Shown here piece by piece: positions 2,761 to 30,000 of a stretch of 64,000 nucleotides of DNA; positions within the stretch are counted from its first letter, which is position 1; each line of letters begins with the position of its first letter. The stretch comes from Amphiscolops sp. MND2022 (taxonomy: Eukaryota): the NCBI GenBank assembly GCA_964187785.1, contig OZ076409.1, positions 73,224,001 through 73,288,000 on the forward strand, given 5' to 3'. The notes beneath the pieces were generated by a model. The model was not told the origin of the DNA, ran no database searches, and saw nothing but the letters and a program-made list of their open reading frames with translations. Made by a program: the position numbers and the translations under genes.

Positions 2761-3030
2761 GCCAATCGTTTGAGTTATAATAAAAAAAAACGTCTTTTTT
2801 GGCAAGAATTCCATACCATAAATAATAATCATGTTCCATATAAGAAGCGAATCATTTGAGATATATACCCTGTTCATTTTTTTAATATTACCGATTATTA
2901 ATTTAATAGATGTTTTGAATGTGAGCTTCCTAAAAGGTTCAGGTGTGATGATACGTAAATAGAACCTTAGTTTCATCGAAATCTCAATTGAATATGTCCA
3001 ATCTTAACCATCAGATAACAAGAAACACTT

Positions 3031-3073
3031 AAGTACATTGCATCTCCCCATCGGGGGAGATGAGAATGTACTT
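3031..3073 (+). other. Bulged hairpin H1 (AAGTACATTC-CATCTCCCC-atcg-GGGGAGATG-A-GAATGTACTT consensus)
   Basis: An inverted repeat with one extra A in the right arm; this copy has one mismatch. Other copies: 7800-7841, 12572-12612, 17325-17367, 24074-24116, 30831-30871, 42714-42756, 46817-46859, 56713-56751. Confidence 0.85.
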
Positions 3074-3893: not shown

Positions 3894-4009
3894 CAACGCC
3901 ACATAGCGTTCCGACGCCCACAGTCTGTGGGCATGCCGAGGCATGCCCTTCGACGACGTATGGCAAATGGAGCCATGCCCGCCGTCTTTACGGCGGTAGC
4001 GGCTAGGTG
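3894..4009 (+). other. Conserved 3'-terminal module plus junction (first of 23 copies)
   Basis: The sequence runs ACAACGCCACATA..CGACGCCCACAGTCTGT-GGGCATGCCGAGGCATGCCC-TTCGACGACGTATG..hairpin..GCTAG|GTG. It is shared by all unit families, including those with dissimilar interiors. Confidence 0.92.
3929..3948. promoter_or_regulatory. 20-bp palindrome matching the p53-family response element (RRRCWWGYYY x2, no spacer); 23 copies
   Basis: GGGCATGCCG|AGGCATGCCC matches 19/20. Copies start at 3929, 8699, 13462, 18222, 20210, 24971, 26962, 31721, 33716, 35703, 37678, 39662, 41656, 42959, 47714, 49711, 51700, 53683, 55669, 56945, 58930, 60913 and 62881. The palindrome is certain; p53 binding is inferred. 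Confidence 0.55.
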
Positions 4010-7000: not shown

Positions 7001-8775
7001 TACTCCTATTGTAGATTATTAGAACTTTGTTTTGAATGAATTTTGATGGATAATAAAAAATTTTGAACCCTCCGAAAATGGGCTAAAATTACACGAAAAA
7101 ATTGACCCTAAAATTTTAAAATGTCTAAAAATCATCAAAACCACAGCTTCTTGAGGTTCTATCAACTCCACATGGCCCACAGAGTATGCCAAACCAGGTT
7201 TTGCGCGTTTTTGAGCAAAATTTAGGAAAGCCGATTTTTTGAGGAAGAAAAACATATCATTTCCTAAAAAACTTCAAATGCACGCCATTTGGCGTATAAC
7301 AATAGCACAGAAAACTATCACATACCAATCAACTCTACTCTTTTTGTAGATTACCAGAAGTTTGCTTAGAATAACTTTTGATGAATATTTATAAATTTTA
7401 AACCCTCCTAATATGGGCCAAAATCACACGGAAAAATTGACCCTAAGTATTAAAATGTCAGATATTCATCAAAACCCCAGCTTCTTGGGGTTCTATCATT
7501 TCCATATGACTTTCAGAGTATACCAAACAAGTTATTAACATTGGGCGATAATTAAAAAGACCAATTTTATTCTGAAGAAAACCATAATATGTTCAATATA
7601 AGAAGTGAATCATTCCACATATATACCCTGTCTAATATTCTAAATTAGCAAAAAAATATATACTTGATGTTTTTCGAATGTGAGCTTCATAAAAGGTTGA
7701 GATGTGATAATACGTAAATGGATTCCAAGTTTCATCGAAAAGTCAATGGAATACGTCCAATCAACTTCAATCTTAACAATTCGATAACAAAAAACACTTA
7801 AGTACATTCCATCTCCCTATCGGGGAGATGAGAATGTACTTTTCAAAAACTAAAAACTTAGATCTTTCTATCTTTTGTAACACTTACTGTAACAGCTGAA
7901 ATGATGAAAGAATAATTATTCTTCTAATAACTTCAAGATTTTTTGCTTCACCTTTTATTTCTGCATAACAAAACCATAAGACATACATATTTTTCGCAGT
8001 TAAGTTCGACTGTATTACCCAGTGAACAAAGGTATGACAGGAAGATTACAAGTTGTCTCAAAACTTTCCCGCCTTCCAAAATCATGAAACGTCTACACAA
8101 CCAAGATAGTAAAGGAATGAATGTGGAATGCATCATTTTAGTTAAAATAAATAACGTGTAGAACTTACCTTTATCTGAAGATGACGTTGATTTATGATCT
8201 TTAGAGGATAGTTCAATTTTTGACCATAATAGTGCGAAACTAATTATTATATGAATAATGGCGTGGAAAGCGTTCAGAAATTGCAGTATTTTCGATTCGA
8301 GCATGTATGCGTGGGTTCCTTTGGTGGCATTAGCTTAGTGTACATGATGGAAGTTTTCGGTCTATTATGATAAAATTTACTCACAAGTCTTTGTTTTTCC
8401 TATTTTCTTATGCCATTAAGTACATTCATTCTATCCCCTTCTCTGGGAATGTACGTTTGCCAAATGACTGTCATCCAAATTTTGCATTCGCGAAGAGTTT
8501 AAAAACATAAACACGTCTTTAGCGTTTCCAAATCACAACCGATTAACATTTTTTAAATTTTTTTTTAATGAAAATTGATAATTTGTTTTGATTTTGGTAT
8601 CTTCTACTTTTATCATCCATCATAACAAGCACCTTACCATGTCTCTCGCTTGTCTTCATTTTACAACGCCACATAGCGTTCCGACTCCCACCGTCTGTGG
8701 GCATGCCGAGGCATGCCCTTCGACGACGTATGCCAACTACTTTTTATATCTACACCCGATTGCGGTAGCGGCTAG
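4007..8775 (+). mobile_element. Unit 1: long class, subfamily C (4769 bp) with divergent 5' leader
   Basis: Bounded by GCTAGGTG junctions. It starts GTGGGGGGATATATCTCC and has 336-bp repeats at ~6240-7520 and H1 at 7800-7841. Confidence 0.75.
6240..7520 (+). repeat. Internal 336-bp tandem repeat (~3.8 copies)
   Basis: Same monomer as 1470-2760 (AAAATCATACCATTTCCTAAAAA...GGGGTTCTATCAACTCCACGTGGTCCACAGAGTA). Confidence 0.88.
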
Positions 8776-11700
8776 GTGGGCGGGGGTAATTCCCCAACAA
8801 AAAAATCGGCCGGCGGGTCGGGTCCTGCCGGCCGTCCAAAATCAAAATCCTCCTAGTAGAAAACGGCATGTCAAACGAGCTATTTTTTTATTTAACCATT
8901 AGAATTTCACCATTTTTTGCATGCGGCCCTGAAATGGCCATACGAGACGAAGTTCCTGCTGACGTTTTGCGATGTAAATGTTTTATAAAAAGTTATGGCC
9001 GATTTGTCATTCACCTAGAAGGGTAAAATGAGGAAAATTTTAACAAAGTCGCTGATAACTCAAAATGTGTTAATTTTTGGACTTTGACTGTGAAACAAGC
9101 TTGGAACCTTCATTTCGTGGCTGTGGCATTGCACTGAACGCAAAAGATGTAAAGTTTTTACATTTTTTGAAAATTTGACATTTTTGAAATTTCTTTCACT
9201 ACTATCAGTATCATATATGTCAAAAACACCTCAGAAAAAAAATTTTATTTGCTTTAACTTGGAAACCTTGGTATCCATGGTTTCTGTCGGAACCTACTCG
9301 CAACCAAACAACCAACAGTTTGCATCCAATGTGAAAATAAAAACTTTTTCTGGGTCATAAGCGTTTCACAAGGATTTCTCAACTTAGTATTAATTTACAA
9401 AATGGTCATTTTGAACACAATATTTTCATCGAGGCTTGTCGGCTATAGCCTTAATGTTCTAGAACGGTCCCACTGGCAACGTAGGAACCATTTATAGTAA
9501 TAGAAAGTTTAAAAAAATATATTTTCACCCTGTCTTCAGTCATTTTTCAGTCATTCGGAACTTAACTTAGAAAAATTTCGACCAAAATACCCATTTTTTG
9601 ACAGATCGAAAATTCAAATTCAACTTTTTAAGCAAAATTATTAACTCTGACGTAACCAGTGGGGCTCATGATACTCAAAAACACGATTGGGACTGGTACC
9701 AATGGCTCCAATATCATATGAGCCGCGATAAGACGTTATTTTGAGCAATACGTCTCAATTGAGGGAAACATCTCGCAAGCCTGGGATCACAGTTAAAAGT
9801 GATTTCGTCAAAAATTTACTCTTTTTCGTCTATCACTATGTACACAGAGTGCGTAGGGTGAGTTTCAGCACTATAATGCGGTTTTTGAAGGAATCGGTCT
9901 GCTCAAGGGGTGGTATGAGACATTTTTTTTTGCATGTAGTACTATATTTCCTAAAACTTTTAGCCCATTATCTCGAAAAGCTCACTTCGCAAATTACTTT
10001 CAGTTACTCTATTCGAAGCTTAGAATATATATGAACACTGTGGTTGATCAGAAACTCTTGACTATTTTGTTTTTGGAAAAAAACTGCCTTGCATGTGTTA
10101 CATTAGTGGCAGGAAAAATACCAGTAGCTCCAAAAATCACAATTTTGGACGGACAGACCTGCAATGATGCAAAGCAAAAACGTTTCAACAACTTCTGGCG
10201 CCACTTTTTTTACCCAAGAGGTTCGAAATTACTATTAACAATGCTGACATTCGCTATATATAAGATCGAGGACAATTTACTAACACTTAGGTTATACATT
10301 TATATCTGAGAAACCATTCTTTGTCAGGTCGCAATTTTAAATTTAGTTTGGGAAGCAATACTTTTCACTCTGAAGCAAACCGTTGGGCCCAAATTACTCA
10401 AAAACTACAAAAAGACTGTCACCAAATGCCCTAATAGCATATGAGATTCGACCGTATGTTTTTAACACAAAAACTCTCATCCGAAGTAAACATGTTGAAA
10501 GCCTTGAATCACCGTGAGAAATGATTTCATCAAAAATATCCCTTTTTCGTCAATCTTTATCTACACAGAACACGTTGTGTCATTTTCAGCCGTGAAATGA
10601 GCTTCTACCGTAATATGGGTTGCTCAAGGTGTTGTATAAGACAAAAACTTCCTCTTTTCTACTATCTTCTTCAAATATTTCAACCCTTTGTCACAAGAAG
10701 TTAATATTCAAAATCTCTTTGAAATGTTTCTTTAGGTTGGTGTGAAGTGTTAGAACAATAATTAAGATCGAAGAATGATAGTATTGGTGTTTGGACCATG
10801 TCCGGATGAACAAATTGCAAAATCATGAAAAATTTCTTACCATTTTTGGTCATTTTGTCAGTACTAAAAATGTTAGCTGAAAAAGAATTTTTTTGATGGC
10901 ACCATTGGATTCCTCTCAAAAAGTTAGCTATATGAACTGTGTAATAACCCCGTATCTTTTCAATTTAAATAATTTTAAAAAGCAAACTTTTTTGACTAAA
11001 ATCCTAAAAATCATACCATTTCCTAAAAAATTTCAAATGCCCCCCATTCGACGTATAAGAATAGCACAGAAAACTATCACATACCGATCGACTCTACTTC
11101 CATTGTAGATTACCAGAATTTTGTTTAGAACAATTTTTGACGGATGCAAAAAAATTTAAACCCTCCAAAAAAGGGCCAAAATTACACGAAAAAATTGACC
11201 TTAAAATTTTAAAATGTCGAAAAATCATCAAAACCACAGCTTCTTGGGGTTCTATCAACTCCACGTGGTCCACAGAGTATGTTAAAACAAGTTTTACCCG
11301 TATTTGAGCAATATGTGAAAAAGCCGACTTTTTTGGGAATGAAAAACATACCATTTCCTAAAAAATTTCAAACGCACCCCATTTGACGTATAAGAATAGC
11401 ACAGAAAACTATCACATACCGATCGACTCTACTTCCATTGTAGGTTACCAGAATCTTGTTTAGAACATTTGTTGACGGATGCAAAAAAAAATAAAACCCT
11501 CCAAAAATGGGCCAAAATTACACGAAAAAATTGACCTTAAATTTTTAAAATGTCAAAAAATCATCAAAACCACAGCTTCTTGGGGTTCTATCAACTCCAC
11601 GTGGTCCACAGAGTATGCTAAAACAGGTTTTACCTGTTTCTGAGCTATATGTGAAAAAACCGACATTTTGGGGAAGAAAAACATACCATTTCCTAAAAAA

Positions 11701-13538
11701 TTTCAAATGCACGCCATTTGCCGTATGAGAATAGCACAGAAAACTATCACATACCGATCAACTCTACTTCTATTGTAGATTATCAGATTTTTGTTTAGAA
11801 CAAATTTTTATGGATATAAAAAATTTTTAAACCCTCCAAAAATGAGCCAAAATAACACGAAAAAATGGACCCTAAATTTTTAAAATGTCAAAAAATTATC
11901 CAAACCACAGCTTCTTGGGGTTCTATCAGCTCCACGTGGTCCACAGAGTATGCTAAAACAGGTTTTGCCCGTTTTTGAGCAGTATATGAAAAAGCCGACA
12001 TTTTTGGGGAAGAAAAACATACCATTTCCTAAATAATTTCAAATGCAGGCAATTTGCCGTATGAGAGTAGCACAGAAAACTATCACACACCGATCAACTC
12101 TACTTCTTTTGTAGATTATCAGAATTATGTTTAGAGTAAAGTTTTATGGATATGAAAAATTTTTATACCCTCCAAAAATGGGCCAAAATGACACGAAAAA
12201 ATTGACCTCAAATTTTTAAAATGTCAAAAAATTATCCAAACCACAGCGTCTTGGCGTTCTATCAACTCCAAATGACCTTCAGAGTATACCAAACCAGGTA
12301 TTGCCAATCTTTTGAGCAATATTTAAAAACACCGACTATTTGGCAAGAACACCATAATATGTTCCATATAAGAAGTGAATCATTCCACATATATACCCGG
12401 TCTAATATTTTCAAATTAGCGATAACATTAATACATGATGTTTTTTGAAAGTGAGCTTCATAAGAGGTTGAGATGTAATAATACGTAAATGGACCCTAAG
12501 TTTCATTGAAATCTCAATGGAATACGTCCAATCAACTTCAATCCTAACTATTATATAACAAGAAACACTTGAGTACATTCCATCTCCCCATCGGGGGAGA
12601 TGAGAATGTACTTTTCAAAAGCCAAAATTTTCGAATTTTAAATCTTTTGTAACATTGTATGTAACTGTTGAAACGATGAACGAATAAAAATGCTTCTAGT
12701 ACCTTCATCAATTTTTGCTTCAGCTCCTATTTCTGCAGAACAAAACCAAAAGACACACTTACAGCAGTTAAGTTCGATTGTATAACTCAGTGAATAAAGG
12801 TATGACTGAGGAAGTTCACAAGTTGTTTCAAAAGTTTCCGGCCTTCCAAAATCATGAAACGTCCACACAACCAAGATAGCAAGTGAAAGAATGCTGAATG
12901 CACCTTATTAGATGAGATAAATAACGTGTGGAACTTGCCATTATCTTAAGATGACGTTGATTTATGATCTTTTAAGGATAGTTCGATATGTGACCACAAT
13001 AGTGGAAAACTTATTACTATTTGAAGAACACCGTGGAAAGCGTTCAGAAAGGACAGTATATTTGTTTCGAGCATGCATGCGTGTGTTCCTTTGGTGACGT
13101 TAGCTTAGTGTACATGACGGAGGTATTCGAGAGATTATGATAGAGTTTACTCACAAGTCTTTGTTTTTTAAAACTTTCTATGCCGTTGAGTACATTCGTA
13201 AGGTACATCCATCCCCTTCTCTGGGAATGTACGTTTGCCAAATGACTGTCATCCAAAATTCGTAATCCGGACGAGTTTAACTACATAAACATGTGATGAG
13301 CGTTTTCTATTCAAAACCGAATAACTTTTTTTTTCTCGAAAATGATGATGGTTTTGATTTTGATGTCTTCTACTTTTATCATCATGCAAACGACCTTACC
13401 ATGTCTCTCTTCTGTCGTCATTTGTACAACGCCACATAGCGTTCCGACGCCCACCGTCTGTGGGCATGCCGAGGCATGCCCTTCGACGACGTATGCCAAA
13501 TGAGCCATACCCGCACTCTGGAGTGCGGTAGCGGCTAG
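8776..13538 (+). mobile_element. Unit 2: long class, subfamily B (4763 bp)
   Basis: Junction-bounded and a near-copy of 27034-31797. 3' hairpin CCGCACTC-tg-GAGTGCGG. Confidence 0.75.
11007..12300 (+). repeat. Internal 336-bp tandem repeat (~3.8 copies)
   Basis: Same monomer as 1470-2760. Confidence 0.88.
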
Positions 13539-16500
13539 GTGGGCGGGGGTAATTCCCCAACAAAAAAATCGGCCGGCGGGTCGGGTCCTGCCGGCCGTCC
13601 AAAATCAAAATCCTCCTAGTAGAAAACGGCATGTCAAACGAGCTATTTTTTTATTTAACCATACGAATTTCACCATTTTTTGCATGCGGCCCTGAAATGG
13701 CCATACGAGACGAAGTTCCTGCTGACGTTTTGCGATGTAAATGTTTTATAAAAAGTTATGGCCGATTTGTCATTCACCTAGAAGGGTAAAATGAGGAAAA
13801 TTTTAACAAAGTCGCTGATAACTCAAAATGTGTTAATTTTTGGACTTTGACAGTGAAACAAGCTTGGAACTGTCATTTCGTGGCTGTGGCATTGCACTGA
13901 ACACAAAAGATGTAAAGTTTTCACATTTTTTGATAATTCGACATTTTTGATTTTTTTTTCACTACTATCAGTACACTATATGTCAAAAACGCCTCTGAAA
14001 AAAATTTTTATTTGCTTAAAATTAGAAACCTTGGTATCCATGGTTTCCGTCAGTACCTACTCGCTGCCAAACGCTCAACAGTTTGCATCCAATGTGAAAA
14101 TATAATTTTTTTCGAGGTCATAGGTGTTTCACAAGGATTTCTCAACTTAGTATCTATTTACAAATTGGTCATTTTGAACCCATTATTTTCATCGAAGCGT
14201 GTCAGATACTACCCTAATGCTCACGAATGGGCCTACTGGCAACGTTGGAACCATTTTTAGTAATAGAAAGTATTAAAAAAATATTTTCACCCGGTCTTCA
14301 GTCATTTTTCAGACATTCGGTACTTAACTTAGAAAAATTTCGCATCAAAAACCCATATTTGGTAGGGTCGAAATTTGAAATTCAGTTTTTTATGCAAAAT
14401 TATTAACTCTGACGTAACCAATGGAGCCCATGATACTCAAAAACACGATTGGGACTGGTATCAGTGGCTCCAATAACATATGAGCCGCGATAAGACGTTA
14501 TTCAGAGCAAACGCTCTAAATCGAAGTAAACATCTCTGAAGCCTGGGATCACAGTGAAATGTGATATCACCAAAAGTTTACTCTTTTTTGTCAATCACTA
14601 TGTACACAGAGTGCGTAGGGTGAGTTTCAGGACTATAATGAGGTTTTTGAAGTAATCGCGCTGCTCAAGGGGTGGTATGAGACTATTTTTTCCCATATAC
14701 TACTACATTTCCATAAATTTGCAGTCCATTGTCTTGGAAAGATAACTTCACAAAAACAATTTTTCTACTCTATTCAGTTATTAGAATAAAGTTGAACACT
14801 GTGGGTGATCAGAAATGCTCAATTCTTTTGGTTTTTAAAAAAAGTCCTTCGCATTCGTTACATTTGTGGAAGGAAGGTTATCAGTAGCTCCAAAAAAAAC
14901 GAAATTTAGCACGAACAGACATGCAACGATGCAAAGCAAAAACGTTTTTACAACTTCCGACGTCATTATTTTACCCAAGAAGTTCGAAAATATCATTCGC
15001 AATGCTGTCATTCGCTATATATACGATCGCGGTCAATTTACAAACATTTAGATTTCATTGTTCTGCTTGAAAACCAATTTTTGTCAGGTCGAAATTTTAA
15101 ATTTTACCTGGGGAGCAATACCCTTCACGCTGAAGTAAACAGTGGGGCCCAAGTTACTCAAAAACAAGAAAGAGACTGCTACAATATGTCCTAATAACAT
15201 ATGGACCACGATAGTACGTTTTTCACACAAAAAACTCTCATCCGAAGTAAATATGTTGAAAGCTTTTAATCACCGTGAGAAGTGATTTCATCAAAAAATA
15301 ACTCTTTTTTGTCAATCACTATTTACACAGAATTTGTAAAGTTAGTTTGAGTCATGAAATGAGGCTTTACCGTAATATGGGTTGCTCAAGGTGTTATATA
15401 AGACAAAAACTTCCTCTTTTCTACTAGCTTCTTCAAATATTTCAACCCTTTGTCACAATAAGTTAATATTCAAAATCTCTTTGAAATGTATCTTTATGTT
15501 GGGGTGAAGTCTAAGAACAATAACTATGATCGAAGAATGCTAGTACTGGTGTTTGAACCATGTCCGGATGAACAAATCACAAAATCATCAAAAAATTGTT
15601 CCCTTTTTTGGTTATTTTGGCAGTACTAAAAATGTTAGCCGATAAATAATTTTTTCGATGGCACCATTGGATTCCTCTCAAAAAGTTGGTTATATGACCT
15701 GTGTAATAACCCCGTATCTTTTCAATTTAAATATATTTAAAAAGCCAACTATTTTGACCAAAATCCTAAAAATCATACCATTTCCTAAAAATTTTCAAAT
15801 GCACCCCATTTGACGTATAAGATAAGCACAGAAAACTATCATATACCGATCAACTCTACTCCTATTGTAGATTATTAGAATTTTGTTTAGAATGAATTTT
15901 GATGAATAATAAAAAAATTTTGAACCCTCCAAAAATGGGCCAAAATTACACGAAAAAATTGACCTTAAAATACCAAAATGTCAAAAAATCATCAAAACCC
16001 AGGCTTCTTGGGGTTCTATCAACTCCGCGTGGTCCACAGAGTATGCTAAAACAGGTTTTACCCGTTTTTGAGCAATATGTGAAAAAGCCGACATTTTTGG
16101 GAAAGAAAAACATACCATTTCCTAAAAAAATTCAAATGCACGTCATTTGCCGTATTAGAATAGCACAGAAAACTATCACATACCTATCAACTCTACTTTC
16201 ATTGCAGATGAACAGAATTTTGTTTAGAATAAATTTTACCGGATAATAAAAAAATTTGAATCCTTCAAAAATGGGCCAAAAATGCACGAAAAAATGGACC
16301 TTAAAAATTTAAAATGTCAAAAAATCATCAAAACAACAGCTTCTTGGGGTTCTATCAACTCCACGAGGTCCACAGAGTATGCTAAAACAGGTTTTACCCG
16401 TTTTTGAGCAATATGTGAAAAAGCCGACATTTTTGGGAAAGAAAAACATACCATTTCCTAAAAAAATTCAAATGCACGCCATTTGCCGTATGAAAATAGC

Positions 16501-18299
16501 ACAGAAAACTATCACATACCAATCAACTCTACTTTCATTGCAGATGAACAGAATTTTGTTTAGAATAAACTTTACCGGATAATACAAAAATTTGATTCCT
16601 TCTAAAATGGGCCAAAATTACACGAAAAAATGGACCTTAAAATTTTAAAATGTCAAAAAATCATCAAAACCACGGCTTCTTGGGGTTCTATCAACTCCAC
16701 GTGGTCCACAGAGTATGCTTAACCCGGTTTTACCCATCTTTGAGCAAAATGTGAAAATACCGACATTTTTGGAAAAGAAAAACATGCCATTTTCTAATAA
16801 ATTTCAAATGCACGCCATTTGCTGTATGAGAATAACACAGAAAGCTGTCACATACCGATCAACTCTACTTCCATTGTAGATTATCAGAAGTTTGTTCAGA
16901 ATAAATTTTGAAGGATAATAAAAAAATTTGAATCCATCAAAAATTGGCCAAAATTACACGAAAAAATTGACCTTAAAATATCAAAATGTCAAAAAATCAT
17001 CAAAACCACAATTTCTTGGCGTTCTATCAACTCCATATGATACCAAACCAAGTACTGCCAATCGTTTGAGTTATAATAAAAAAACGTCTTTTTTGGCAAG
17101 AATTCCATACCATAAATAATAATCATGTTCCATATAAGAAGCGAATCATTTCAGATATATACCCTGTTCATTTTTTTAATATTACCGATTATTAATTTAT
17201 TAGATGTTTTGAATGTGAGCTTCCTAAAAGGTTCAGGTGTGATGATACGTAAATAGAACCTTAGTTTCATCGAAATCTCAATTGAATATGTCCAATCTTA
17301 ACCATCAGATAACAAGAAACACTTAAGTACATTCCATCTCCCCATCGGGGGAGATGAGAATGTACTTTCGAGAAGCCAAATACGTCCAACATTCAAACTT
17401 TTGTAACTTTGTATGTAACTCCTGAAACGAAGAAGGAATAAAATTGTTTCTGGTACATACATGAGTCTTTACTTCAGCTTCTATTTCTGCTGAACAAAAC
17501 CATTCGACTCTTTTGCCGGAGTTAAGATCGATTGTATTACCCAGTGAACAAAGGCATGACTGAAAACGTTTACTACTTTGTTCATAATTTTCCGGCCTTC
17601 CGAAATGATGAAACGTCCACATAACTAAGATAGCAAGTGAATGACTGCGAAATGCACCTTATTAGATGAGGTAAATAACGTGTAAAACTCTCCTTTATCC
17701 TAACATGAGGTTGAGTAATGATCATTTGAGAATAGTTTGATATGTGAATACAATAGTATAAAACAAGTACATTTTATATGAATAACGCCGTGGAAAGCGT
17801 TCAGAAAGGACAGTAGGCTTGTTTGGAACATGTATGTGTGGTGTCCCTTGGTGGCGTTCGCTTAGTGTATATGTCGAGGGGTATTCGAGTTGTTATGATA
17901 GAATTTACACACAAGTCTTTTGTTTTTTGGTTTTTTTAAAATGTCGTTAAGTACCTGCATTCTATCCCCTTCTCAGAGATGACGTGAAGTTACGTTTGCT
18001 AAATAAATGTCATCGAAAGATCACACTCCCGACGAAATTAACTATCTTAACACGTGTTTAGAATTTTAAATAAACAACCGTATAAGATTTTTATATTTCA
18101 TTGAGTTTGATGAAGTCTTTTGTTCTTCTCACTACTATTTCAACCAATACACATATCCGTTACCATATCACATGTCTCCATTAGTACAACGCCACATAGC
18201 GTTCCGACGCCCACAGTCTGTGGGCATGCCAAGGCATGCCCTTCGACGACGTATGGCAAATGGAGCCATGCCCGCCGTCTTTACGGCGGTAGCGGCTAG
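13539..18299 (+). mobile_element. Unit 3: long class, subfamily A (4761 bp)
   Basis: Junction-bounded and almost identical to 20288-25048. Confidence 0.75.
15770..17050 (+). repeat. Internal 336-bp tandem repeat (~3.8 copies)
   Basis: Same monomer as 1470-2760. Confidence 0.88.
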
Positions 18300-20287
18300 G
18301 TGGGCGGGGGTAATTCCCCAACAAAAAAATCGGCCGGCGGGTCGGGTCCTGCCGGCCGTCCAAAATCAAAATTATACTAGTAGAAAACGGCCGGTCAAAC
18401 GAGCTATTTTTTTATTTAACCGTTAGAATTTGGGTTTAGATTGCATGCGGCCATGAAATGGCCATACGAATTGAAGTTCCTGCTGACGTTTTGCGATTGA
18501 AACACTTTATAAAAAGTTATGGCCAATTTGTCAGTCACCTAGAAGGGCAAAATGAGGAAAATTTTAACAAAGTCGCTGATATCTCAAAATGTGTTAATTT
18601 TTGGACTTTGACTGTGAAACAAGCTTGGAACCTTCATTTCGTGGCTGTGGCATTGCACTGAACACAAAAGCTGTAAAGTTTTCACATTTTTTGAAAATTC
18701 GACATTTTTGAAATTTTTTTCACTACTATCAGTACCCCATATGTCAAAAACACCTCAGAAAAATTTTTTTATTTGCTTTAAGTTGGAAACCTTGGTATCC
18801 ATGGTTTCTGTCGGAACCTACTCGCAGCCAAACACCCAACAGTTTGCATCCAATGTGAAATAAAAAATTTTTTCGAGGTCATAAGCGTTTCACAAGGTTT
18901 TCATGATTTAGTATTAAATTACATAGTGGTCATTTTAAACATAAAATTTTGGTCCAGGCATGTCGGATATAGTCTGAATGCTCACGAACGGTCCTACTGG
19001 CAACGTAGGAACCATTTATAGTAATAAAAAGTATTAAAAATTTTTTTTCACCCGGTCTTCAGTCATTTTTCAGATATTCGGAACTTAACTTAGAAAATTT
19101 TCGAACCAAATACCCATTTTTTGTCAGGTCGAAAATTGAAATTCAGCTATTAAAGCAAAATTTTTTACTCTGACGTAACCAGTGGGGTCCATGATACTCA
19201 AAAATACGATTGGGACTGGTACCAATGGCTCCTATATCATATGAGCCGCGATAAGACGTTATTTTGAGCAATACGTCTCAATTGAGGTAAACATCTCGCA
19301 AGCCTGGGATCACAGTGAAATGTAATTTCATCAAAAAATTACTCATTTTCGTCAATCACTATGTGCATAGAGTGGGTAGGGTGAGTTCCAACACTATAAT
19401 GAGGTTTTTGAAGGCATCGGGTTGCTCAAGGGGTGGTATGAGTCATTACTTTCCTATATACAACTGTATTTTCAAAAACTTTTAGCCCATTATCTGGAAA
19501 AACTAACTTGACAAAATACTTTCAATTACTTTATTCAATGGTTACAATATAGATGAACACTGTGGTTGATCAGAAACTTTCATCTCTTTCGTTTTCCGAA
19601 ATAACTCCTTTCAAATGTGTTACATTTGTAGCAGGAAAAAAAACTGAAACTAAAAAATACGCGATTTTGCTGAGATAGAATCGCAATGGTTGCGCCTAAA
19701 ATCTCTTTAAAAACTTCTAACGCAACCTTACGGACCCAAAATGATTGAAAATGCCATTCACAATGCTGACATGTGCTCTTTCTACGATCCTGGCTGGACA
19801 AGTTTTGCATTTTTTTCAAGTACCTGTTAACTGAACATTGTGATAGCCTTTCAAGTTGGCCTTGTGTCAACTTGGGAAGGCTGTCACATCAAAAAACTGT
19901 CAACAAAAATACCATTTGTTTATAGGATATTGCTGTCGATGCTTCACTTCGTGATTCGATCATGTCGTGAGTTCCTTCCATCAGGTCAGCTAACATTTGG
20001 ATTCAGTGTTGGATAAGAACCTATGATTTTCATGACAATTTTCGTTTTTTTTTGCCAACAAAAAGTACAAATAAATGATATAAAACATATTTGTAACCTC
20101 TAGGAAGTTTAACTTTACCTTTTTTACCGTTACCATCACAACCCACCCCCTACGACCTCGCAGTGTCCTCATTACAACGCCACGAAGTGTTGCGACGTCC
20201 ACCGTCTGTGGGCATGCCGAGGCATGCCCTTCGACGACGTATGCCAAAAATAGCGCCCTCCGCGGTCACTACCGCGGTAGCAGCTAG
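18300..20287 (+). mobile_element. Unit 4: 2-kb class, family S (1988 bp)
   Basis: Junction-bounded, with H2 at 19842-19885 and 3' hairpin CCGCGGT-cact-ACCGCGG. The body closely matches unit 11. Confidence 0.75.
19839..19888 (+). other. Bulged hairpin H2 (TGT-GATAGCCTTT-YAAGTTGGC-cttgt-GTCAACTTG-G-GAAGGCTRTC-ACA)
   Basis: An inverted repeat with G.T pairs and one extra base in the right arm. The 44-nt cores start at 19842, 26590, 33340, 35335, 37291, 39294, 41283, 49337, 51330, 53313, 55296, 58559, 60543 and 62495. Confidence 0.85.
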
Positions 20288-23200
20288 GTGGGCGGGGGTA
20301 ATTCCCCAACAAAAAAATCGGCCGGCGGGTCGGGTCCTGCCGGCCGTCCAAAATCAAAATCCTCCTAGTAGAAAACGGCATGTCAAACGAGCTATTTTTT
20401 TATTTAACCATACGAATTTCACCATTTTTTGCATGCGGCCCTGAAATGGCCATACGAGACGAAGTTCCTGCTGACGTTTTGCGATGTAAATGTTTTATAA
20501 AAAGTTATGGCCGATTTGTCATTCACCTAGAAGGGTAAAATGAGGAAAATTTTAACAAAGTCGCTGATAACTCAAAATGTGTTAATTTTTGGACTTTGAC
20601 AGTGAAACAAGCTTGGAACTGTCATTTCGTGGCTGTGGCATTGCACTGAACACAAAAGATGTAAAGTTTTCACATTTTTTGATAATTCGACATTTTTGAT
20701 TTTTTTTTCACTACTATCAGTACACTATATGTCAAAAACGCCTCTGAAAAAAATTTTTATTTGCTTAAAATTAGAAACCTTGGTATCCATGGTTTCCGTC
20801 AGTACCTACTCGCTGCCAAACGCTCAACAGTTTGCATCCAATGTGAAAATATAATTTTTTTCGAGGTCATAGGTGTTTCACAAGGATTTCTCAACTTAGT
20901 ATCTATTTACAAATTGGTCATTTTGAACCCATTATTTTCATCGAAGCGTGTCAGATACTACCCTAATGCTCACGAATGGGCCTACTGGCAACGTTGGAAC
21001 CATTTTTAGTAATAGAAAGTATTAAAAAAATATTTTCACCCGGTCTTCAGTCATTTTTCAGACATTCGGTACTTAACTTAGAAAAATTTCGCATCAAAAA
21101 CCCATATTTGGTAGGGTCGAAATTTGAAATTCAGTTTTTTATGCAAAATTATTAACTCTGACGTAACCAATGGAGCCCATGATACTCAAAAACACGATTG
21201 GGACTGGTATCAGTGGCTCCAATAACATATGAGCCGCGATAAGACGTTATTCAGAGCAAACGCTCTAAATCGAAGTAAACATCTCTGAAGCCTGGGATCA
21301 CAGTGAAATGTGATATCACCAAAAGTTTACTCTTTTTTGTCAATCACTATGTACACAGAGTGCGTAGGGTGAGTTTCAGGACTATAATGAGGTTTTTGAA
21401 GTAATCGCGCTGCTCAAGGGGTGGTATGAGACTATTTTTTCCCATATACTACTACATTTCCATAAATTTGCAGTCCATTGTCTTGGAAAGATAACTTCAC
21501 AAAAACAATTTTTCTACTCTATTCAGTTATTAGAATAAAGTTGAACACTGTGGGTGATCAGAAATGCTCAATTCTTTTGGTTTTTAAAAAAAGTCCTTCG
21601 CATTCGTTACATTTGTGGAAGGAAGGTTATCAGTAGCTCCAAAAAAAACGAAATTTAGCACGAACAGACATGCAACGATGCAAAGCAAAAACGTTTTTAC
21701 AACTTCCGACGTCATTATTTTACCCAAGAAGTTCGAAAATATCATTCGCAATGCTGTCATTCGCTATATATACGATCGCGGTCAATTTACAAACATTTAG
21801 ATTTCATTGTTCTGCTTGAAAACCAATTTTTGTCAGGTCGAAATTTTAAATTTTACCTGGGGAGCAATACCCTTCACGCTGAAGTAAACAGTGGGGCCCA
21901 AGTTACTCAAAAACAAGAAAGAGACTGCTACAATATGTCCTAATAACATATGGACCACGATAGTACGTTTTTCACACAAAAAACTCTCATCCGAAGTAAA
22001 TATGTTGAAAGCTTTTAATCACCGTGAGAAGTGATTTCATCAAAAAATAACTCTTTTTTGTCAATCACTATTTACACAGAATTTGTAAAGTTAGTTTGAG
22101 TCATGAAATGAGGCTTTACCGTAATATGGGTTGCTCAAGGTGTTATATAAGACAAAAACTTCCTCTTTTCTACTAGCTTCTTCAAATATTTCAACCCTTT
22201 GTCACAATAAGTTAATATTCAAAATCTCTTTGAAATGTATCTTTATGTTGGGGTGAAGTCTAAGAACAATAACTATGATCGAAGAATGCTAGTACTGGTG
22301 TTTGAACCATGTCCGGATGAACAAATCACAAAATCATCAAAAAATTGTTCCCTTTTTTGGTTATTTTGGCAGTACTAAAAATGTTAGCCGATAAATAATT
22401 TTTTCGATGGCACCATTGGATTCCTCTCAAAAAGTTGGTTATATGACCTGTGTAATAACCCCGTATCTTTTCAATTTAAATATATTTAAAAAGCCAACTA
22501 TTTTGACCAAAATCCTAAAAATCATACCATTTCCTAAAAATTTTCAAATGCACCCCATTTGACGTATAAGATAAGCACAGAAAACTATCATATACCGATC
22601 AACTCTACTCCTATTGTAGATTATTAGAATTTTGTTTAGAATGAATTTTGATGAATAATAAAAAAATTTTGAACCCTCCAAAAATGGGCCAAAATTACAC
22701 GAAAAAATTGACCTTAAAATACCAAAATGTCAAAAAATCATCAAAACCCAGGCTTCTTGGGGTTCTATCAACTCCGCGTGGTCCACAGAGTATGCTAAAA
22801 CAGGTTTTACCCGTTTTTGAGCAATATGTGAAAAAGCCGACATTTTTGGGAAAGAAAAACATACCATTTCCTAAAAAAATTCAAATGCACGTCATTTGCC
22901 GTATTAGAATAGCACAGAAAACTATCACATACCTATCAACTCTACTTTCATTGCAGATGAACAGAATTTTGTTTAGAATAAATTTTACCGGATAATAAAA
23001 AAATTTGAATCCTTCAAAAATGGGCCAAAAATGCACGAAAAAATGGACCTTAAAAATTTAAAATGTCAAAAAATCATCAAAACAACAGCTTCTTGGGGTT
23101 CTATCAACTCCACGAGGTCCACAGAGTATGCTAAAACAGGTTTTACCCGTTTTTGAGCAATATGTGAAAAAGCCGACATTTTTGGGAAAGAAAAACATAC

Positions 23201-25048
23201 CATTTCCTAAAAAAATTCAAATGCACGCCATTTGCCGTATGAAAATAGCACAGAAAACTATCACATACCAATCAACTCTACTTTCATTGCAGATGAACAG
23301 AATTTTGTTTAGAATAAACTTTACCGGATAATACAAAAATTTGATTCCTTCTAAAATGGGCCAAAATTACACGAAAAAATGGACCTTAAAATTTTAAAAT
23401 GTCAAAAAATCATCAAAACCACGGCTTCTTGGGGTTCTATCAACTCCACGTGGTCCACAGAGTATGCTTAACCCGGTTTTACCCATCTTTGAGCAAAATG
23501 TGAAAATACCGACATTTTTGGAAAAGAAAAACATGCCATTTTCTAATAAATTTCAAATGCACGCCATTTGCTGTATGAGAATAACACAGAAAGCTGTCAC
23601 ATACCGATCAACTCTACTTCCATTGTAGATTATCAGAAGTTTGTTCAGAATAAATTTTGAAGGATAATAAAAAAATTTGAATCCATCAAAAATTGGCCAA
23701 AATTACACGAAAAAATTGACCTTAAAATATCAAAATGTCAAAAAATCATCAAAACCACAATTTCTTGGCGTTCTATCAACTCCATATGATACCAAACCAA
23801 GTACTGCCAATCGTTTGAGTTATAATAAAAAAACGTCTTTTTTGGCAAGAATTCCATACCATAAATAATAATCATGTTCCATATAAGAAGCGAATCATTT
23901 CAGATATATACCCTGTTCATTTTTTTAATATTACCGATTATTAATTTATTAGATGTTTTGAATGTGAGCTTCCTAAAAGGTTCAGGTGTGATGATACGTA
24001 AATAGAACCTTAGTTTCATCGAAATCTCAATTGAATATGTCCAATCTTAACCATCAGATAACAAGAAACACTTAAGTACATTCCATCTCCCCATCGGGGG
24101 AGATGAGAATGTACTTTCGAGAAGCCAAATACGTCCAACATTCAAAGTTTTGTAACTTTGTATGTAACTCCTGAAACGAAGAAGGAATAAAATTGTTTCT
24201 GGTACATACATGAGTCTTTACTTCAGCTTCTATTTCTGCTGAACAAAACCATTCGACTCTTTTGCCGGAGTTAAGATCGATTGTATTACCCAGTGAACAA
24301 AGGCATGACTGAAAACGTTTACTACTTTGTTCATAATTTTCCGGCCTTCCGAAATGATGAAACGTCCACATAACTAAGATAGCAAGTGAATGACTGCGAA
24401 ATGCACCTTATTAGATGAGGTAAATAACGTGTAAAACTCTCCTTTATCCTAACATGAGGTTGAGTAATGATCATTTGAGAATAGTTTGATATGTGAATAC
24501 AATAGTATAAAACAAGTACATTTTATATGAATAACGCCGTGGAAAGCGTTCAGAAAGGACAGTAGGCTTGTTTGGAACATGTATGTGTGGTGTCCCTTGG
24601 TGGCGTTCGCTTAGTGTATATGTCGAGGGGTATTCGAGTTGTTATGATAGAATTTACACACAAGTCTTTTGTTTTTTGGTTTTTTTAAAATGTCGTTAAG
24701 TACCTGCATTCTATCCCCTTCTCAGAGATGACGTGAAGTTACGTTTGCTAAATAAATGTCATCGAAAGATCACACTCCCGACGAAATTAACTATCTTAAC
24801 ACGTGTTTAGAATTTTAAATAAACAACCGTATAAGATTTTTATATTTCATTGAGTTTGATGAAGTCTTTTGTTCTTCTCACTACTATTTCAACCAATACA
24901 CATATCCGTTACCATATCACATGTCTCCATTAGTACAACGCCACATAGCGTTCCGACGCCCACAGTCTGTGGGCATGCCAAGGCATGCCCTTCGACGACG
25001 TATGGCAAATGGAGCCATGCCCGCCGTCTTTACGGCGGTAGCGGCTAG
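20288..25048 (+). mobile_element. Unit 5: long class, subfamily A (4761 bp)
   Basis: Junction-bounded and nearly identical to unit 3, including the AA-centred palindrome variant. Confidence 0.75.
22519..23800 (+). repeat. Internal 336-bp tandem repeat (~3.8 copies)
   Basis: Same monomer as 1470-2760. Confidence 0.88.
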
Positions 25049-27033
25049 GTGGGCGGGGGTAATTCCCCAACAAAAATTACGGCCGGCGGGTTGGGTCCTG
25101 CCGGACGTCAAATAGCAAAGAATATCTAGTAGGAAACGGCGACACAGAATCGCGATTTTTAAATCTAACCACAATTTTTTGGACTTGGAGTGCATGCGGC
25201 CCTGAAATGCCCATACGAATCGAAGTTCCTGCTGACGTTAAGCGATTGAAATAATATATAAAAAGTTATGGCCCATTTTTCACTCACATAGAAGGGTAAA
25301 ATGAGGAAATTTTTAACAAAGTCGCTGATAACTCAAAATGTGTTAATTTTTGGACATTGACTGTGAAACAAGCTTGGAACCTTCATTTCGTGGCTGTGGC
25401 ATTGCACTGAACACAAAAGATGTAAAGTTTTTACATTTTTTGAAAATTCGACATTTTTGAAATTTTTTTCACTACTATCAGTACACTATATGTCAAAAAC
25501 GCCTCAGAAAAAATTTTTTATTTGCTTTAAATTGGAAACCTTGGTATCCATGGTTTCTGTCGGATCCTACTCGCAGTCAAACACCCAACAGTTTGCATCC
25601 AATGTGGAAATAAAAATTTTTTCGGGGTCATAAGCGTTTCACAAGGATTTCTCAACTTAGTTTCAATTTACAAATTGGTCACATTGAACACATTATTTTC
25701 ATCGAAGCGCGTCAGATACCGCCCTAAAGCTCACGAACGGTCCTACTGGCAACGTAGCAACCATTTATAGTAATATAAAAGATTTAAAAAATTTTTTCAC
25801 CCGGTCTTCAGTCATTTTTCAGTCATTCGGAACTTAACTTAGAAAAATTTCGACCAAAATACCCATTTTTTGTCAGGTCGAAAAATCAAATTCAGATTTT
25901 TAAGCAAAATTATTAACTCTGACGTAACTCATGGGGCCCATGATACTCAAAACAACGATTGACACTGGTATCAATGGCTCCAATAACATATGAGTCGCGA
26001 TCGGACGTTATTTTGAGCAATACGTCTCAATTGAGGTAAAGATCTCGCAAGCCAGCGATCACTGTCAAATGTGATTTCATCAAAAATTTACTCATTTTTG
26101 TCAATCATTATGTGCACAGAATGCGTAGGGTGCGTTTCAGCACTATAATGAGGTTTTTGAATGCATCGAGTTGCTCAAGGGGTGGTACGAGACATTTTTG
26201 TCCCATATACTACTGTATTTTCCAAAATTTTTAGCCCAATATCTGGAAATACAACCTTGACAAAATACTTTCAACTATTTTATTCAAAGGTTACAATATA
26301 GATGAACACTGTGGTTGATCAGAAACTTTCATCTCTTTCGTTTTCCGAAATATTTTCCTTCGCATGTGTTAAATTTGTATCAGAAAAAAAATCGAAACTG
26401 AAAAATACGCTATTTTGCTAATATAGAATCGCAATGATTGTGCCTAAAAACTCTTTAAACACTTCTAACGCGACCTTACGCACCCAAAATGATCGAAAAT
26501 GCTATTCACAATGGTGACATGTGCTCTTTCAACGATCCTGGCTGGACAAGGTTTGCATATTTTTCAAGTACCTGTCAGCTGAATCTTGTGATAGCCTTTT
26601 AAGTTGGCCTTGTGTCAACTTGGGAAGGCTATCACATCAAACAACCATCAACAAAAATAATTTTTGTTTATTGGATATTACAGTTGATACCTTATTTCGT
26701 GATTCTATACTACCGTTAGTATATTCCATGAGGTCACCTTACGATTGCATTCAGACTTTGATGAAAACCTATGAACTCAAAGTCACATTTATATATTTTT
26801 TGCCCAAAAAAATCATCAAAAACATCTAATATATATAAAATTGAGTCTTTAACTTTTTTACGTTTCAAGTTTCTGCCGTTATTAAGCCAATCAACTTCCT
26901 ACAGCCACGCTCTCTGTCATACTGTACAACGCCACATAGTGTTGCGACGTGCACGGTCTGTGGGCATGCCGAGGCATGCCCTTCGACGACGTATGCCGAA
27001 TACCGCGGGCCTATGCCCGCGCTCCCCGGCTAG
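25049..27033 (+). mobile_element. Unit 6: 2-kb class, family S (1985 bp)
   Basis: Junction-bounded, with H2 at 26590-26633 and 3' hairpin CGCGGGC-ctat-GCCCGCG. Confidence 0.75.
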
Positions 27034-30000
27034 GTGGGCGGGGGTAATTCCCCAACAAAAAAATCGGCCGGCGGGTCGGGTCCTGCCGGCCGTCCAAAAT
27101 CAAAATCCTCCTAGTAGAAAACGGCATGTCAAACGAGCTATTTTTTTATTTAACCATACGAATTTCACCATTTTTTGCATGCGGCCCTGAAATGGCCATA
27201 CGAGACGAAGTTCCTGCTGACGTTTTGCGATGTAAATGTTTTATAAAAAGTTATGGCCGATTTGTCATTCACCTAGAAGGGTAAAGTGAGGAAAATTTTA
27301 ACAAAGTCGCTGATAACTCAAAATGTGGTAATTTTTGGACTTTGACTGTGAAACAAGCTTGGAACCTTCATTTCGTGGCTGGGGCATTGGATTGAACACA
27401 AAAGATGTAAAGTTTTTACATTTTTTGAAAATTTGACATTTTTGAAATTTTTTTCACTACTATCAGTACCATATATGTCAAAAACACCTCAGAAAAAAAA
27501 TTTTATTTGCTTTAACTTGGAAACCTTGGTATCCATGGTTTCTGTCGGAACCTACTCGCAACCAAACAACCAACAGTTTGCATCCAATGTGAAAATAAAA
27601 AATTTTTCTGGGTCATAAGCGTTTCACAAGGATTTCTCAACTTAGTATTAATTTACAAAATGGTCATTTTGAACACAATATTTTCATCGAGGCTTGTCGG
27701 CTATAGCCTTAATGTTCTAGAACGGTCCCACTGGCAACGAAGGAACCATTTATAGTAATAGAAAGTTTAAAAAATATATTTTCACCCTGTTTTCAGTCAT
27801 TTTTCAGTCATTCGGAACTTAACTTAGAAAAATTTCGACCAAAATACCCATTTTTTGACAGATCGAAAATTCAAATTCAACTTTTTAAGCAAAATTAGTA
27901 ACTCTGACGTAACCAGTGGGGCTCATGATACTCAAAAACACGATTGGGACTGGTACCAATGGCTCCAATATCATATGAGCCGCGATAAGACGTTATTTTG
28001 AGCAATACGTCTCAATTGAGGGAAACATCTCGCAAGCCTGGGATCACAGTTAAAAGTGATTTCGTCAAAAATTTACTCTTTTTCGTCAATCACTATGTAC
28101 ACAGAGTGCGTAGGGTGAGTTTCAGCACTATAATGCGGTTTTTGAAGGAATCGGTCTGCTCAAGGGGTGGTATGAGACATTTTTTTTGCATGTAGTACTA
28201 TATTTCTCAAAACTTTTAGCCCAATATCTCGAAAAGCTCACTTCGCAAATTACTTTCAGTTACTCTATTCGAAGCTTAGAATATATATGAACACTGTGGT
28301 TGATCAGAAACTCTTGACTATTTTGTTTTTGGAAAAAAACTGCCTTGCATGTGTTACATTAGTGGCAGGAAAAATACCAGTAGCTCCAAAAATCACAATT
28401 TTGGATGGACAGACCTGCAATGATGCAAAGCAAAAACGTTTCAACAACTTCTGGCGCCACTTTTTTTACCCAAGAGGTTCGAAATTACTATTAACAATGC
28501 TGACATTCGCTATAAATAAGATCGAGGTCAATTTACCAACACTTAGGTTATACATTTATATCTGAGAAACCATTCTTTGTCAGGTCGCAATTTTAAATTC
28601 AGTTTGGGAAGCAATACTTTTCACTCTGAAGCAAACCGTTGGGCCCAAATTACTCAAAAACTACAAAAAGACTGTCACCATATGCCCTAATAGCATATGA
28701 GATTCGACCGTATGTTTTTAACACAAAAACTCTCATCCGAAGTAAACATGTTGAAAGGCTTGAATCACCGTGAGAAATGATTTCATCAAAAAATATTCCT
28801 TTTTCGTCAATCTTTATCTACACAGAACACGTTGTGTCATTTTCAGCCGTGAAATGAGCTTCTACCGTAATATGGGTTGCTCAAGGTGTTGTATAAGACA
28901 AAAACTTCCTCTTTTCTACTATCTTCTTCAAATATTTCAACCCTTTGTCACAAGAAGTTAATATTCAAAATCTCTTTGAAAGGTTTCTTTAGGTTGGGGT
29001 GAAGTGTTAGAACAATAGTTATGATCGAAGAATGATAGTATTGGTGTTTGGACCATGTCCGGATGAACAAATTGCAAAATCATGAAAAATTTCTTACCAT
29101 TTTTGGTCATTTTGTCAGTACTAAAAATGTTAGCTGAAAAAGAATTTTTTTGATGGCACCATTGGATTCCTCTCAAAAAGTTAGCTTTATGAACTGTGTA
29201 ATAACCCCGTATCTTTTCAATTTAAATAATTTTAAAAAGCAAACTTTTTTGACTAAAATCCTAAAAATCATACCATTTCCTAAAAAATTTCAAATGCCCC
29301 CCATTTGACGTATAAGAATAGCACAGAAAACTATCACATACCGATCGACTCTACTTCCATTGTAGATTACCAGAATTTTGTTTAGAACAATTTTTGACGG
29401 ATGCAAAAAAAATTTAAACCCTCCAAAAAAGGGCCAAAATTACACGAAAAAATTGACCTTAAAATTTTAAAATGTCGAAAAATCATCAAAACCACAGCTT
29501 CTTGGGGTTCTATCAACTCCACGTGGTCCACAGAGTATGTTAAAACAAGTTTTACCCGTATTTGAGCAAGATGTGAAAAAGCCGACTTTTTTGGGAATGA
29601 AAAACATACCATTTCCTAAAAAATTTCAAACGCACCCCATTTGACGTACAAGAATAGCACAGAAAACTATCACATACCGATCGACTCTACTTCCATTGTA
29701 GGTTACCAGAATCTTGTTTAGAACAATTGTTGACGGATGCAAAAAAAAAATTAAACCCTCCAAAAATGGGCCAAAATTACACGAAAAAATTGACCTTAAA
29801 TTTTTAAAATGTCAAAAAATCATCAAAACCACAGCTTCTTGGGGTTCTATCAACTCCACGTGGTCCACAGAGTATGCTAAAACAGGTTTTACATGTTTCT
29901 GAGCTATATGTGAAAAAACCGACATTTTGGGGAAGAAAAACATACCATTTCTTAAAAAATTTCAAATGCACGCCATTTGTCGTATGAGAATAGCACAGAA

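Follow-up and report, generated by a model that had tools for sequence, protein, structure and literature searches.

Interchangeable hairpins in the short Helitron-like elements of an Amphiscolops array and their possible role in second-strand priming

Why do short mobile units that differ in most of their sequence each keep one small hairpin? The question is raised by a stretch of 64,000 nucleotides (nt) from Amphiscolops sp. MND2022 (GenBank assembly GCA_964187785.1, contig OZ076409.1, positions 73,224,001 to 73,288,000, forward strand), below called the window, which corresponds to G000:C1:73.22-73.29 Mb in a genome of 1.07 Gb. By self-comparison, the whole window (1..64000, plus strand) was found to be a single unbroken head-to-tail array of non-autonomous Helitron-like units. 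Its two hairpins, H1 and H2, belong to a set of four that are unrelated and can stand in for one another, and nearly every short element carries one of them.

Hairpins of the short units

Along the window, 23 CTAG^GTG junctions (the caret marks the joint) delimit 22 whole units of four types in mixed order, namely six A units (4.76 kb), twelve B units (1.99 kb), two C units (1.3 kb) and two D units (1.97 kb). Nine intact H1 and 14 H2 copies were found, one per unit; A and C units have H1 in common, B and D units H2. The hairpins and the units that represent the four types are:

17325..17367, plus strand: H1 hairpin, intact, in a 4.76-kb A unit, with the invariant blocks GTACATT/AATGTAC and GAGATG
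19839..19888, plus strand: H2 hairpin in a 1.99-kb B unit, with the blocks GATAGCC/GGCTATC and AAGTTG/CAACTT
13539..18299, plus strand: A unit, non-autonomous (GTG...CTAG), which contains a 336-bp internal satellite and two H1 copies, the one intact and the other decayed
18300..20287, plus strand: B-type non-autonomous unit with H2
41728-43028, plus strand: C-type unit of 1.30 kb, H1 at 42714..42756
55741-57018: second C unit, H1 at 56713-56751
35781-37751, plus strand: D-type unit, H2 at 37291..37334
60985-62958: second D unit, H2 at 62495-62538

A preliminary description of this DNA had placed H1 at 17325-17367, H2 at 19842-19885 and 33340-33383 and an H1 variant at 42714-42756; sequences and coordinates are as it gave them, and H1 and H2 are indeed unrelated in sequence (local score 19, shuffle mean 20.9, p 0.73). 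The geometry that it assigned to both, a 10-base-pair (bp) outer stem, one extra right-arm base and a 9-bp inner stem, turned out to be the majority state and no general rule across clusters. For H1, the right arm was longer by one base in 103 of 108 units (25/29 clusters) and of equal length in five units (4 clusters). Among 65 units with H2, one extra base was present in 51 (10/16 clusters), none in 11 (4 clusters) and two in three (2 clusters). Any of the four nucleotides can be the extra one, its position shifts, and the inner stem of H1 varies in length. As DNA, H2 forms a 1x2 internal loop instead of a clean bulge, and its outer stem comprises 13 bp when the flanking TGT/ACA is counted. 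Overall, the hairpins have 19-22 bp, loops of 3-7 nt and a total length of 42-50 nt, their flanks are unpaired, and in most but not all H1 and H2 clusters TTG precedes the stem and AAA follows it after 5-8 nt. Compared with shuffled sequences, folding was strongly favored for H1 and H2 under DNA (z -9.6 and -6.0) as well as RNA parameters (z -8.9 and -6.7), with none of 200 shuffles folding as well. Rfam models gave no match at gathering score over the window and none at E<=1 over four loci; readings of the hairpins as Sm site, iron-responsive element, mirtron or basal-UG/CNNC precursor were dropped after inspection by eye.

The stems keep their sequence and their plus-strand pairing, while bulge and loop vary. 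In H1, the blocks GTACATT in the 5' arm and GAGATG in the 3' arm were present in 39/39 variants and the spacing of the 3' arm is constant; in H2, the spacing of the 5' arm is constant in 31/32 variants. These variants were collected with patterns tolerating one substitution per block, so that more divergent copies would escape. Conservation peaks exactly on the hairpin across 29 H1 and 16 H2 clusters. Between families the hairpin islands share 86% (A/C, H1) and 91% (B/D, H2) identity, with flanks at 55-57% and a baseline of 51% for unrelated sequence. It is the bases themselves that are constrained, in two blocks of the stem, which is the reverse of the structure-only conservation of the attC type. 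Covariation at the base of H1, as described before, was confirmed. In alignments of 47 H1 and 39 H2 variants, all of them related sequences and freed of two reverse-strand duplicates, covariation scores lay above 500/500 shuffles for both hairpins, and two-sided changes were limited to 4/19 pairs in H1 (at the base and next to the loop) and 4/22 in H2 (at the base and in the center). Non-canonical cells were G.T more often than A.C (40:13 in H1, 64:13 in H2), and the plus strand folded better in 33/38 H2 variants. These patterns point to selection on the hairpins in folded single-stranded form, probably on the plus strand. To this extent the earlier idea that they are read in single-stranded form is supported; its second half, that the extrahelical base is the determinant as in integron attC sites and IS200/IS605 ends, is not.

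For a census, 204 distinct whole units between recognized junctions were collected from the window and the loci L001-L080 and grouped into 53 clusters at 85% identity. In this sample, which is biased to short units and array interiors, 203/204 units carry a hairpin: H1 in 106, H2 in 63, a third kind (H4) in 27, a fourth (H5) in five, and both H1 and H2 in two. One of the latter two is explained by a missed junction. The other is an A/B chimera (L050:3900-8330) with H1 and H2 both intact and the switch point between them. The sole sampled short unit without H1, H2, H4 or H5, of 4,380 nt, lies in L034 and has another hairpin 323 nt from its 3' end. The hairpin is internal, and its location is free (200-1,090 nt from the 3' end) while its orientation is constant in all units. 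The families are mosaic, with heads, tails and blocks shuffled, and hairpin types are combined with many head and tail types. Genome-wide, the H1 pattern has at least 2,557 copies. Exact copies of the H1 region occur across C1 71.4-74.0 Mb and also on C2; the array spans at least that C1 interval.

Natural knock-outs are provided by units that once held a spare copy. In A units, a further H1 lies some 350 nt before the 3' end; it decayed in three ways, the upstream copy being intact, and scored 14-18 bits in seven A units, compared with 57-73 bits for the intact copy, and 8.8 bits in an eighth A unit of another subfamily. The decayed copies in the window are:

8420..8454 (plus strand), 13190-13232 and 31449-31491: decayed second H1 copies in A units
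unit position ~4,410, about window 17950-18010: further decayed H1 form, A1 subfamily

Long autonomous elements (described below) are mostly without H1 and H2. In 40 autonomous 3' parts (248 kb), one of which took in a short unit via a missed junction, H1 was nowhere intact and H2 was found once intact and once decayed, leaving 39/40 without an intact copy of either. The decayed H2 occurs in two copies of its family that are 99.3% identical. In the element whose H2 is intact there is a decayed H1 as well, which scored 15.5 bits where reversed sequences reached 7.7 at best. No match to H1 or H2 was detected in ten autonomous 5' regions with a recognized head, the interiors of open reading frames (ORFs) having been covered in few elements. 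One intact hairpin of any kind thus appears to be needed per short unit, and long elements do without. Taken together, the one-per-unit pattern, the decay of spare copies and the loss in autonomous elements argue for a cis-acting signal on a single strand.

Ends, target and autonomous partners

The units are mobile elements, since comparison with empty sites shows that they inserted cleanly. Thirty-five places were found at which a 3' end lacks a following G, and 20 of them were fetched; 15 of these 20 candidates for solo elements match array units, and several are whole units between unique flanks. For three solos with a repeat as left flank, the filled site was compared with empty paralogous copies, and in 3/3 cases the flanks join exactly, without target duplication and without loss. 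The joints in the empty copies read CTTG^GT (5/5 loci), CTTG^AT (4/4 loci) and GTCC^TT (two of four loci passed the match filter). Solo elements begin with GTG and not with TC. In all fetched loci, 344 of 374 heads are joined directly to a recognized tail, and the four bases before these 344 heads are CTAG in 305, CTGG in 38 and CTTG in one. Free heads, which were not picked by the non-G pattern and have no evident preceding tail, follow CT(A/T/G)G in 10/11 cases, although two of them may follow tails of unrecognized families. The right flanks of insertions have T at the second place nearly always.

The ends are illustrated by the junction of the A and B units listed above:

18222..18241, plus strand: subterminal palindrome GGCATGCC-NN-GGCATGCC, present at all 23 unit ends of the window
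18272..18299, plus strand: 3' terminus, an 18-nt GC-rich hairpin (18272-18289) 10 nt before the terminal CTAG, a Helitron-type right end
18300..18358, plus strand: 5' terminus, a GTG start and a head hairpin with the loop motif GGGT.GGGTCC, also found in autonomous elements

A 26-nt motif of the 3' palindrome has 4,262 exact copies in the genome. Since the elements start with GT, end with CTAG and insert after CT(A/T/G)G, each junction would re-create the target, and insertion 3' of this sequence could in this way build mixed arrays. A target of 4-6 nt is insufficient to account for the clustering, so that a preference for resident ends or local duplication must, as we infer, contribute.

Several insertions depart from the simple head-to-tail order. 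An inverted B unit lies inside the head of another unit (L040:4484-6514), and units are nested in other units at an internal CTTG^GT or inside the head hairpin (L170:7051-8386 and L038). In L166:5498-9828 the same host flank follows three element 3' ends, a tandem duplication that includes flanking DNA. A solo B unit in L006 sits within tRNA-like sequence, after CTAG. Inside the A units, the 336-bp satellite is present in 3.8-4 copies (window 15769-17035 and the other A units); over 117 bp, it can be matched to the 5' region of an autonomous element.

An autonomous partner was found inside an array at C1 24.0 Mb, where a unit of 13.7 kb with the same head motif encodes an ORF of 2,373 amino acids. 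Pfam recognized Helitron_like_N and PIF1 above cut-off and a C-terminal GIY-YIG domain just below cut-off, which by profile search is SLX1-like (E 1.8e-8). This protein, a RepHel, has the HYH and YxxxY motifs (HUH, two tyrosines); in comparison with Helraiser, only the helicase core matches (E 2.4e-6). Among 150 scored genome matches to its last 139 amino acids, 37 lie in open frames of at least 2,200 amino acids. Array units follow all of the first ten RepHel loci fetched. In total, 46 homologues were found, and some relatives have an OTU domain. Two further ORFs of autonomous elements, ORF2 and ORF3, match no Pfam family. ORF2 (L061:4443-5060) resembles SGNH/GDSL hydrolases, by language-model features only, which brings to mind the esterases of some retroelements. 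The model of ORF3 (pLDDT 84) matches the OB folds of CST and RPA (Foldseek E 2e-5 to 6e-4, with low TM-scores). Neither an integrase nor TnpA was seen in or beside the arrays fetched, and no genome-wide search was made for either.

In many short families, the 5' part equals the initial 590-850 nt of an autonomous element and the 3' part is an autonomous-type tail of 80-170 nt, with a payload between them. D units derive from a 20-kb autonomous family; the parent of the B-unit head in the window is not among the autonomous elements examined.

Autonomous elements have hairpins of their own. H3 (core GGGAGACCWGAGTGCC, with a covarying outer stem) is repeated seven to eight times behind the RepHel stop and is present twice at the ORF3 stop. 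H6 (55-60 nt) has a conserved internal loop, CACAAAG ... GGGTGG, and is located past the stops of RepHel and ORF3, in many cases as tandem copies; it is spread across autonomous families that are about 40% alike, and some 3' ends are preceded by it at a distance of ~230 nt. H4-like hairpins, whose loop is C-GCA-G, lie 4-78 nt past the RepHel stop. In L027/L041, the interval between RepHel and ORF2 holds a purine-rich minisatellite of ~75 bp containing AGATGAGAAT; a 10-nt match of this minisatellite to the 3' arm of H1 in some autonomous elements is at chance level. The loci are:

L061:2478-3085 and 7163-7295, L027/L041: H3 copies
L071, L079, L092, L097, L156, L157, L159, L162, L167-L170: H6
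L073:2435-2487, L089:874-926, L090:870-922: H4-like hairpins

Possible roles of the hairpin

For the role of the hairpin we tentatively favor, by analogy, a cis-acting signal resembling a single-strand origin (sso), which would lie on the displaced plus strand and prime the second strand of the transposon circle. Helraiser moves one strand and needs a double-stranded donor (PMC5876387; PMC6431247). Bacterial single-strand origins are orientation-specific stem-loops, and sso1 of ICEBs1, redundant in the full element, does matter in mini-ICEBs1 (PMC4595007). On the model of Helraiser, RepHel would nick at the GTG end, displace the plus strand and halt at the 3' hairpin-CTAG, and the resulting circle would have to turn double-stranded to serve as donor. 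For the elements described here, the hairpin may remain folded on the coated strand and be recognized via its base pairs, most likely by the RPA/CST-like OB protein of the element together with host Pol alpha-primase. Autonomous circles of 8-20 kb might offer redundant priming sites, and the loss of the hairpin would hence be tolerated. The apical loops of H4, in a set partly chosen by its loop pattern, are mostly C-GNA-G, a DNA mini-hairpin type with DNA-specific stability. Together with the element-encoded CST/RPA-like protein, these loops speak for second-strand priming.

Several observations weigh against this proposal. The analogy on which the priming role draws is with bacterial elements, and in human cells double-stranded circles arise from Helraiser donors that contain a foreign cassette along with the two termini (PMC5876387), so that a canonical Helitron needs no such internal signal. 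H2 is rich in G.T pairs and folds cleanly only under RNA parameters. Counted by pair type, G.T exceeds A.C by 7:3 in H1 and by only 8:7 in H2, and the strand bias of H1 is modest (24/43 plus, 16 minus, RNA parameters). The choice of H4 copies in part by their loop takes weight from the loop argument. In 20/29 clusters, H1 is preceded at a distance of 210-236 nt by a block (TGACGT) that also occurs in the autonomous 5' region and is placed as a promoter would be. The other conserved hairpins of autonomous elements (H3, H6, H4-like) lie just past stop codons, which fits RNA elements of 3' untranslated regions, and the pattern of variation, with the first base free, the next 6-7 fixed and the center variable, resembles microRNA (miRNA) arms.

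These points keep two RNA-based explanations in play. It is possible, if unlikely, that the hairpin has its role in nascent RNA, where it would act in cis on the transcript of its own unit as a stem for processing, termination or protein tethering; the short unit would thereby stay open to transcription or escape silencing, or read-through along the array would be stopped. The need for one hairpin per unit is accounted for equally well, the stems are rich in G.U, and short H1 and H4 families retain the first 590-850 nt of autonomous elements with the hairpin sitting where the RepHel gene would begin; the TGACGT block and the hairpins after autonomous stop codons point the same way. However, of the two H1 copies in A units it is the one spaced from the block in the usual way that decayed, the other being retained, and the block was not found in B units. 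There is no consistent splice donor, a poly(A) signal is present in 3/29 H1 and 7/16 H2 clusters only, the hairpins are not consistently coupled to a TATA element, and the Helitron transposition intermediate is established not to be RNA. When two low-share contig runs were compared with the array, scattered related pieces were all that appeared, and no conclusion on expression was drawn from them. About as unlikely is the explanation that H1, H2, H4 and H5 are precursors of small regulatory RNAs, either miRNA-like or short hairpins sliced by Argonaute, which the transposon amplified to thousands of copies. In its favor, the hairpins have a duplex of ~20 bp with a central imperfection, a free position 1, fixed positions 2-7/8, a variable center and a conserved 3' part, and the loop of H1 is unconstrained in length and sequence; the copy number of H1 is in line with it, and pre-mir-451, with 42 nt, offers a precedent (PMC3919586). 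Canonical animal precursors, in contrast, have stems of 30-35 bp (PMC12553114), and the hairpins, with 42-50 nt and loops of 3-7 nt, have neither such a stem nor a lower stem nor a loop of Dicer length. Constraint is roughly equal on both arms, a product acting in trans leaves the decay of spare copies unexplained, no arm showed an excess of seed matches in 151 kb of autonomous DNA, and Rfam gave no match. The one miRNA-like locus found in the host, with the mir-124 model and below cut-off, spans ~57 nt and has a longer loop; the let-7 model matched nowhere in the genome, which is uninformative. This mir-124-like hairpin (L171:1501-1571, minus strand) has scant pairing past the duplex, which hints at atypical pri-miRNA stems in the host.

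Other explanations stay with DNA. RepHel, or the SLX1-like GIY-YIG domain in it, could dock, pause or cut at the hairpin on a single DNA strand, and short elements could in this way compete for the enzyme supplied in trans. The match of the C-terminal domain to structure-specific nucleases of the SLX1 type, the sequence-specific stems and the one-per-unit pattern in cis agree with this; we nevertheless consider it improbable, as autonomous elements, which are necessarily moved by the same enzyme, are mostly without H1 and H2, hairpin kinds are mixed with many head and tail types, and neither the insertions nor the one clear chimera are located at the hairpin. Still less can be said for hairpins without function, that is, inverted repeats kept alike via conversion between arms and recent swaps between families. 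The mosaic make-up of the families would suit such swaps, yet conservation peaks exactly at the hairpin in 29 and 16 clusters, spare copies decay and single copies do not, and conversion between arms would wipe out the bulge and the G.T pairs; this explanation is therefore very improbable. That the extrahelical base serves strand recognition, as the preliminary description proposed, we regard as scarcely credible. The additional right-arm base is the majority state, and the bias to the plus strand would fit. But the base is lost in 4/29 H1 and 4/16 H2 clusters and varies in identity and position, the stems are conserved in sequence beyond shape alone, and the hairpins lie away from unit borders and strand-transfer sites. 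Loss of the bulge had been named in advance as an outcome that would speak against the proposal, and it was found in part, with whole families bulge-free; these multi-copy families largely refute the attC-type reading.

Significance and relation to known systems

If second-strand priming is the role of the hairpin, 45 nt that are conserved, deletable, swappable and provided with natural knock-outs make the step from displaced strand to double-stranded donor circle testable. Intact and apparently young RepHel copies mean that an active system could be cloned directly. Annotators based on TC/CTRR ends or on terminal inverted repeats would miss the GTG...CTAG termini, and a self-renewing target would be a route to megabase arrays by insertion. 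Should the small-RNA explanation be true instead, a family of hairpin RNAs in thousands of copies would have been spread by a transposon. Doubtful as it is in its entirety, the wider picture would be that of a separate Helitron lineage (RepHel-GIY-YIG with SGNH and CST/RPA-like helpers) which targets its own 3' end and so builds ordered, multi-megabase archives in which dozens of families are kept, their short satellites relying on single-strand origins that can be exchanged for one another; a eukaryotic DNA transposon would then be shown for the first time to have an sso-like signal for second-strand priming. No description of such a signal was found in the literature searched. The strings of the hairpin arms likewise led to no papers, and searches of main texts outside subscription journals turned up no account of the system.

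In attC sites and the ends of IS200/IS605, an imperfect hairpin is read on one strand, its position coincides with the site of recombination, and it cannot do without its extrahelical bases. The hairpins described here can lack the bulge and lie inside the unit, at 200-1,090 nt from its 3' end; no attC or IS200 context was seen. The sso of rolling-circle plasmids and ICEBs1 is a stem-loop that is orientation-specific, cis-acting, needed in the mini-element and redundant in the full one (PMC4595007), traits that the hairpins would share. It differs in that the bacterial sso usually comprises several stem-loops over a longer region and is primed by bacterial enzymes (PMC4595007), and the sso activity of the hairpins described here is putative.

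The definitions of the two groups of Helitron-like elements, HLE1 and HLE2, were taken from PMC11417382. With HLE1 (Helraiser) the system shares a RepHel with HUH motif, two tyrosines and PIF1-like helicase (PMC11417382, PMC5876387), a 3' hairpin 10-12 nt ahead of CTAG (CTRR type) and the absence of target duplication (PMC11417382), as well as an RPA-like gene downstream of RepHel and non-autonomous derivatives (PMC11417382, PMC5876387). It differs by its GTG 5' end with a head hairpin, where HLE1 has TC, and by insertion after CT(A/T/G)G, where HLE1 inserts at A^T (PMC11417382). Further differences are the fused SLX1-like GIY-YIG domain, the SGNH-like ORF, the divergent RepHel, the mixed-family megabase arrays and the internal hairpin retained by short elements. 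HLE2 (Helentron/Helitron2) is similar in its accessory domains, with OTU in some relatives and GIY-YIG reported once, in HelenSM92, and in having hairpins at both ends (PMC11417382). In contrast to HLE2, the target is not T^T, no AP endonuclease is among the Pfam hits of the RepHel partner, and the element ends with CTAG (PMC11417382). Short terminal inverted repeats, a trait of HLE2, were not evident in the termini inspected, for which no dedicated search was made. The 3' end is HLE1-like, and the 5' end and the target fit neither HLE1 nor HLE2. The HUH transposons of the IS91 type and the Replitrons also insert in an orientation-specific manner beside a short target without duplication, but are without a fused helicase, and Replitrons have a Y1 Rep and terminal direct repeats (PMC10288648). 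The partner described here has a fused PIF1 helicase and is not a Replitron.

Centromeric Helitron arrays are known from plants. Work on Xenopus (PMC12001565), Meloidogyne (PMC13404089) and Paramecium (10.1101/2025.11.06.686955) also describes Helitrons that form tandem or clustered arrays, contain satellites and can favor a repeated target. Unlike these, the arrays of Amphiscolops sp. MND2022 are made of whole units from dozens of families without relation to one another, which alternate and are joined exactly at CTAG^GTG, and the elements' own end would be the target.

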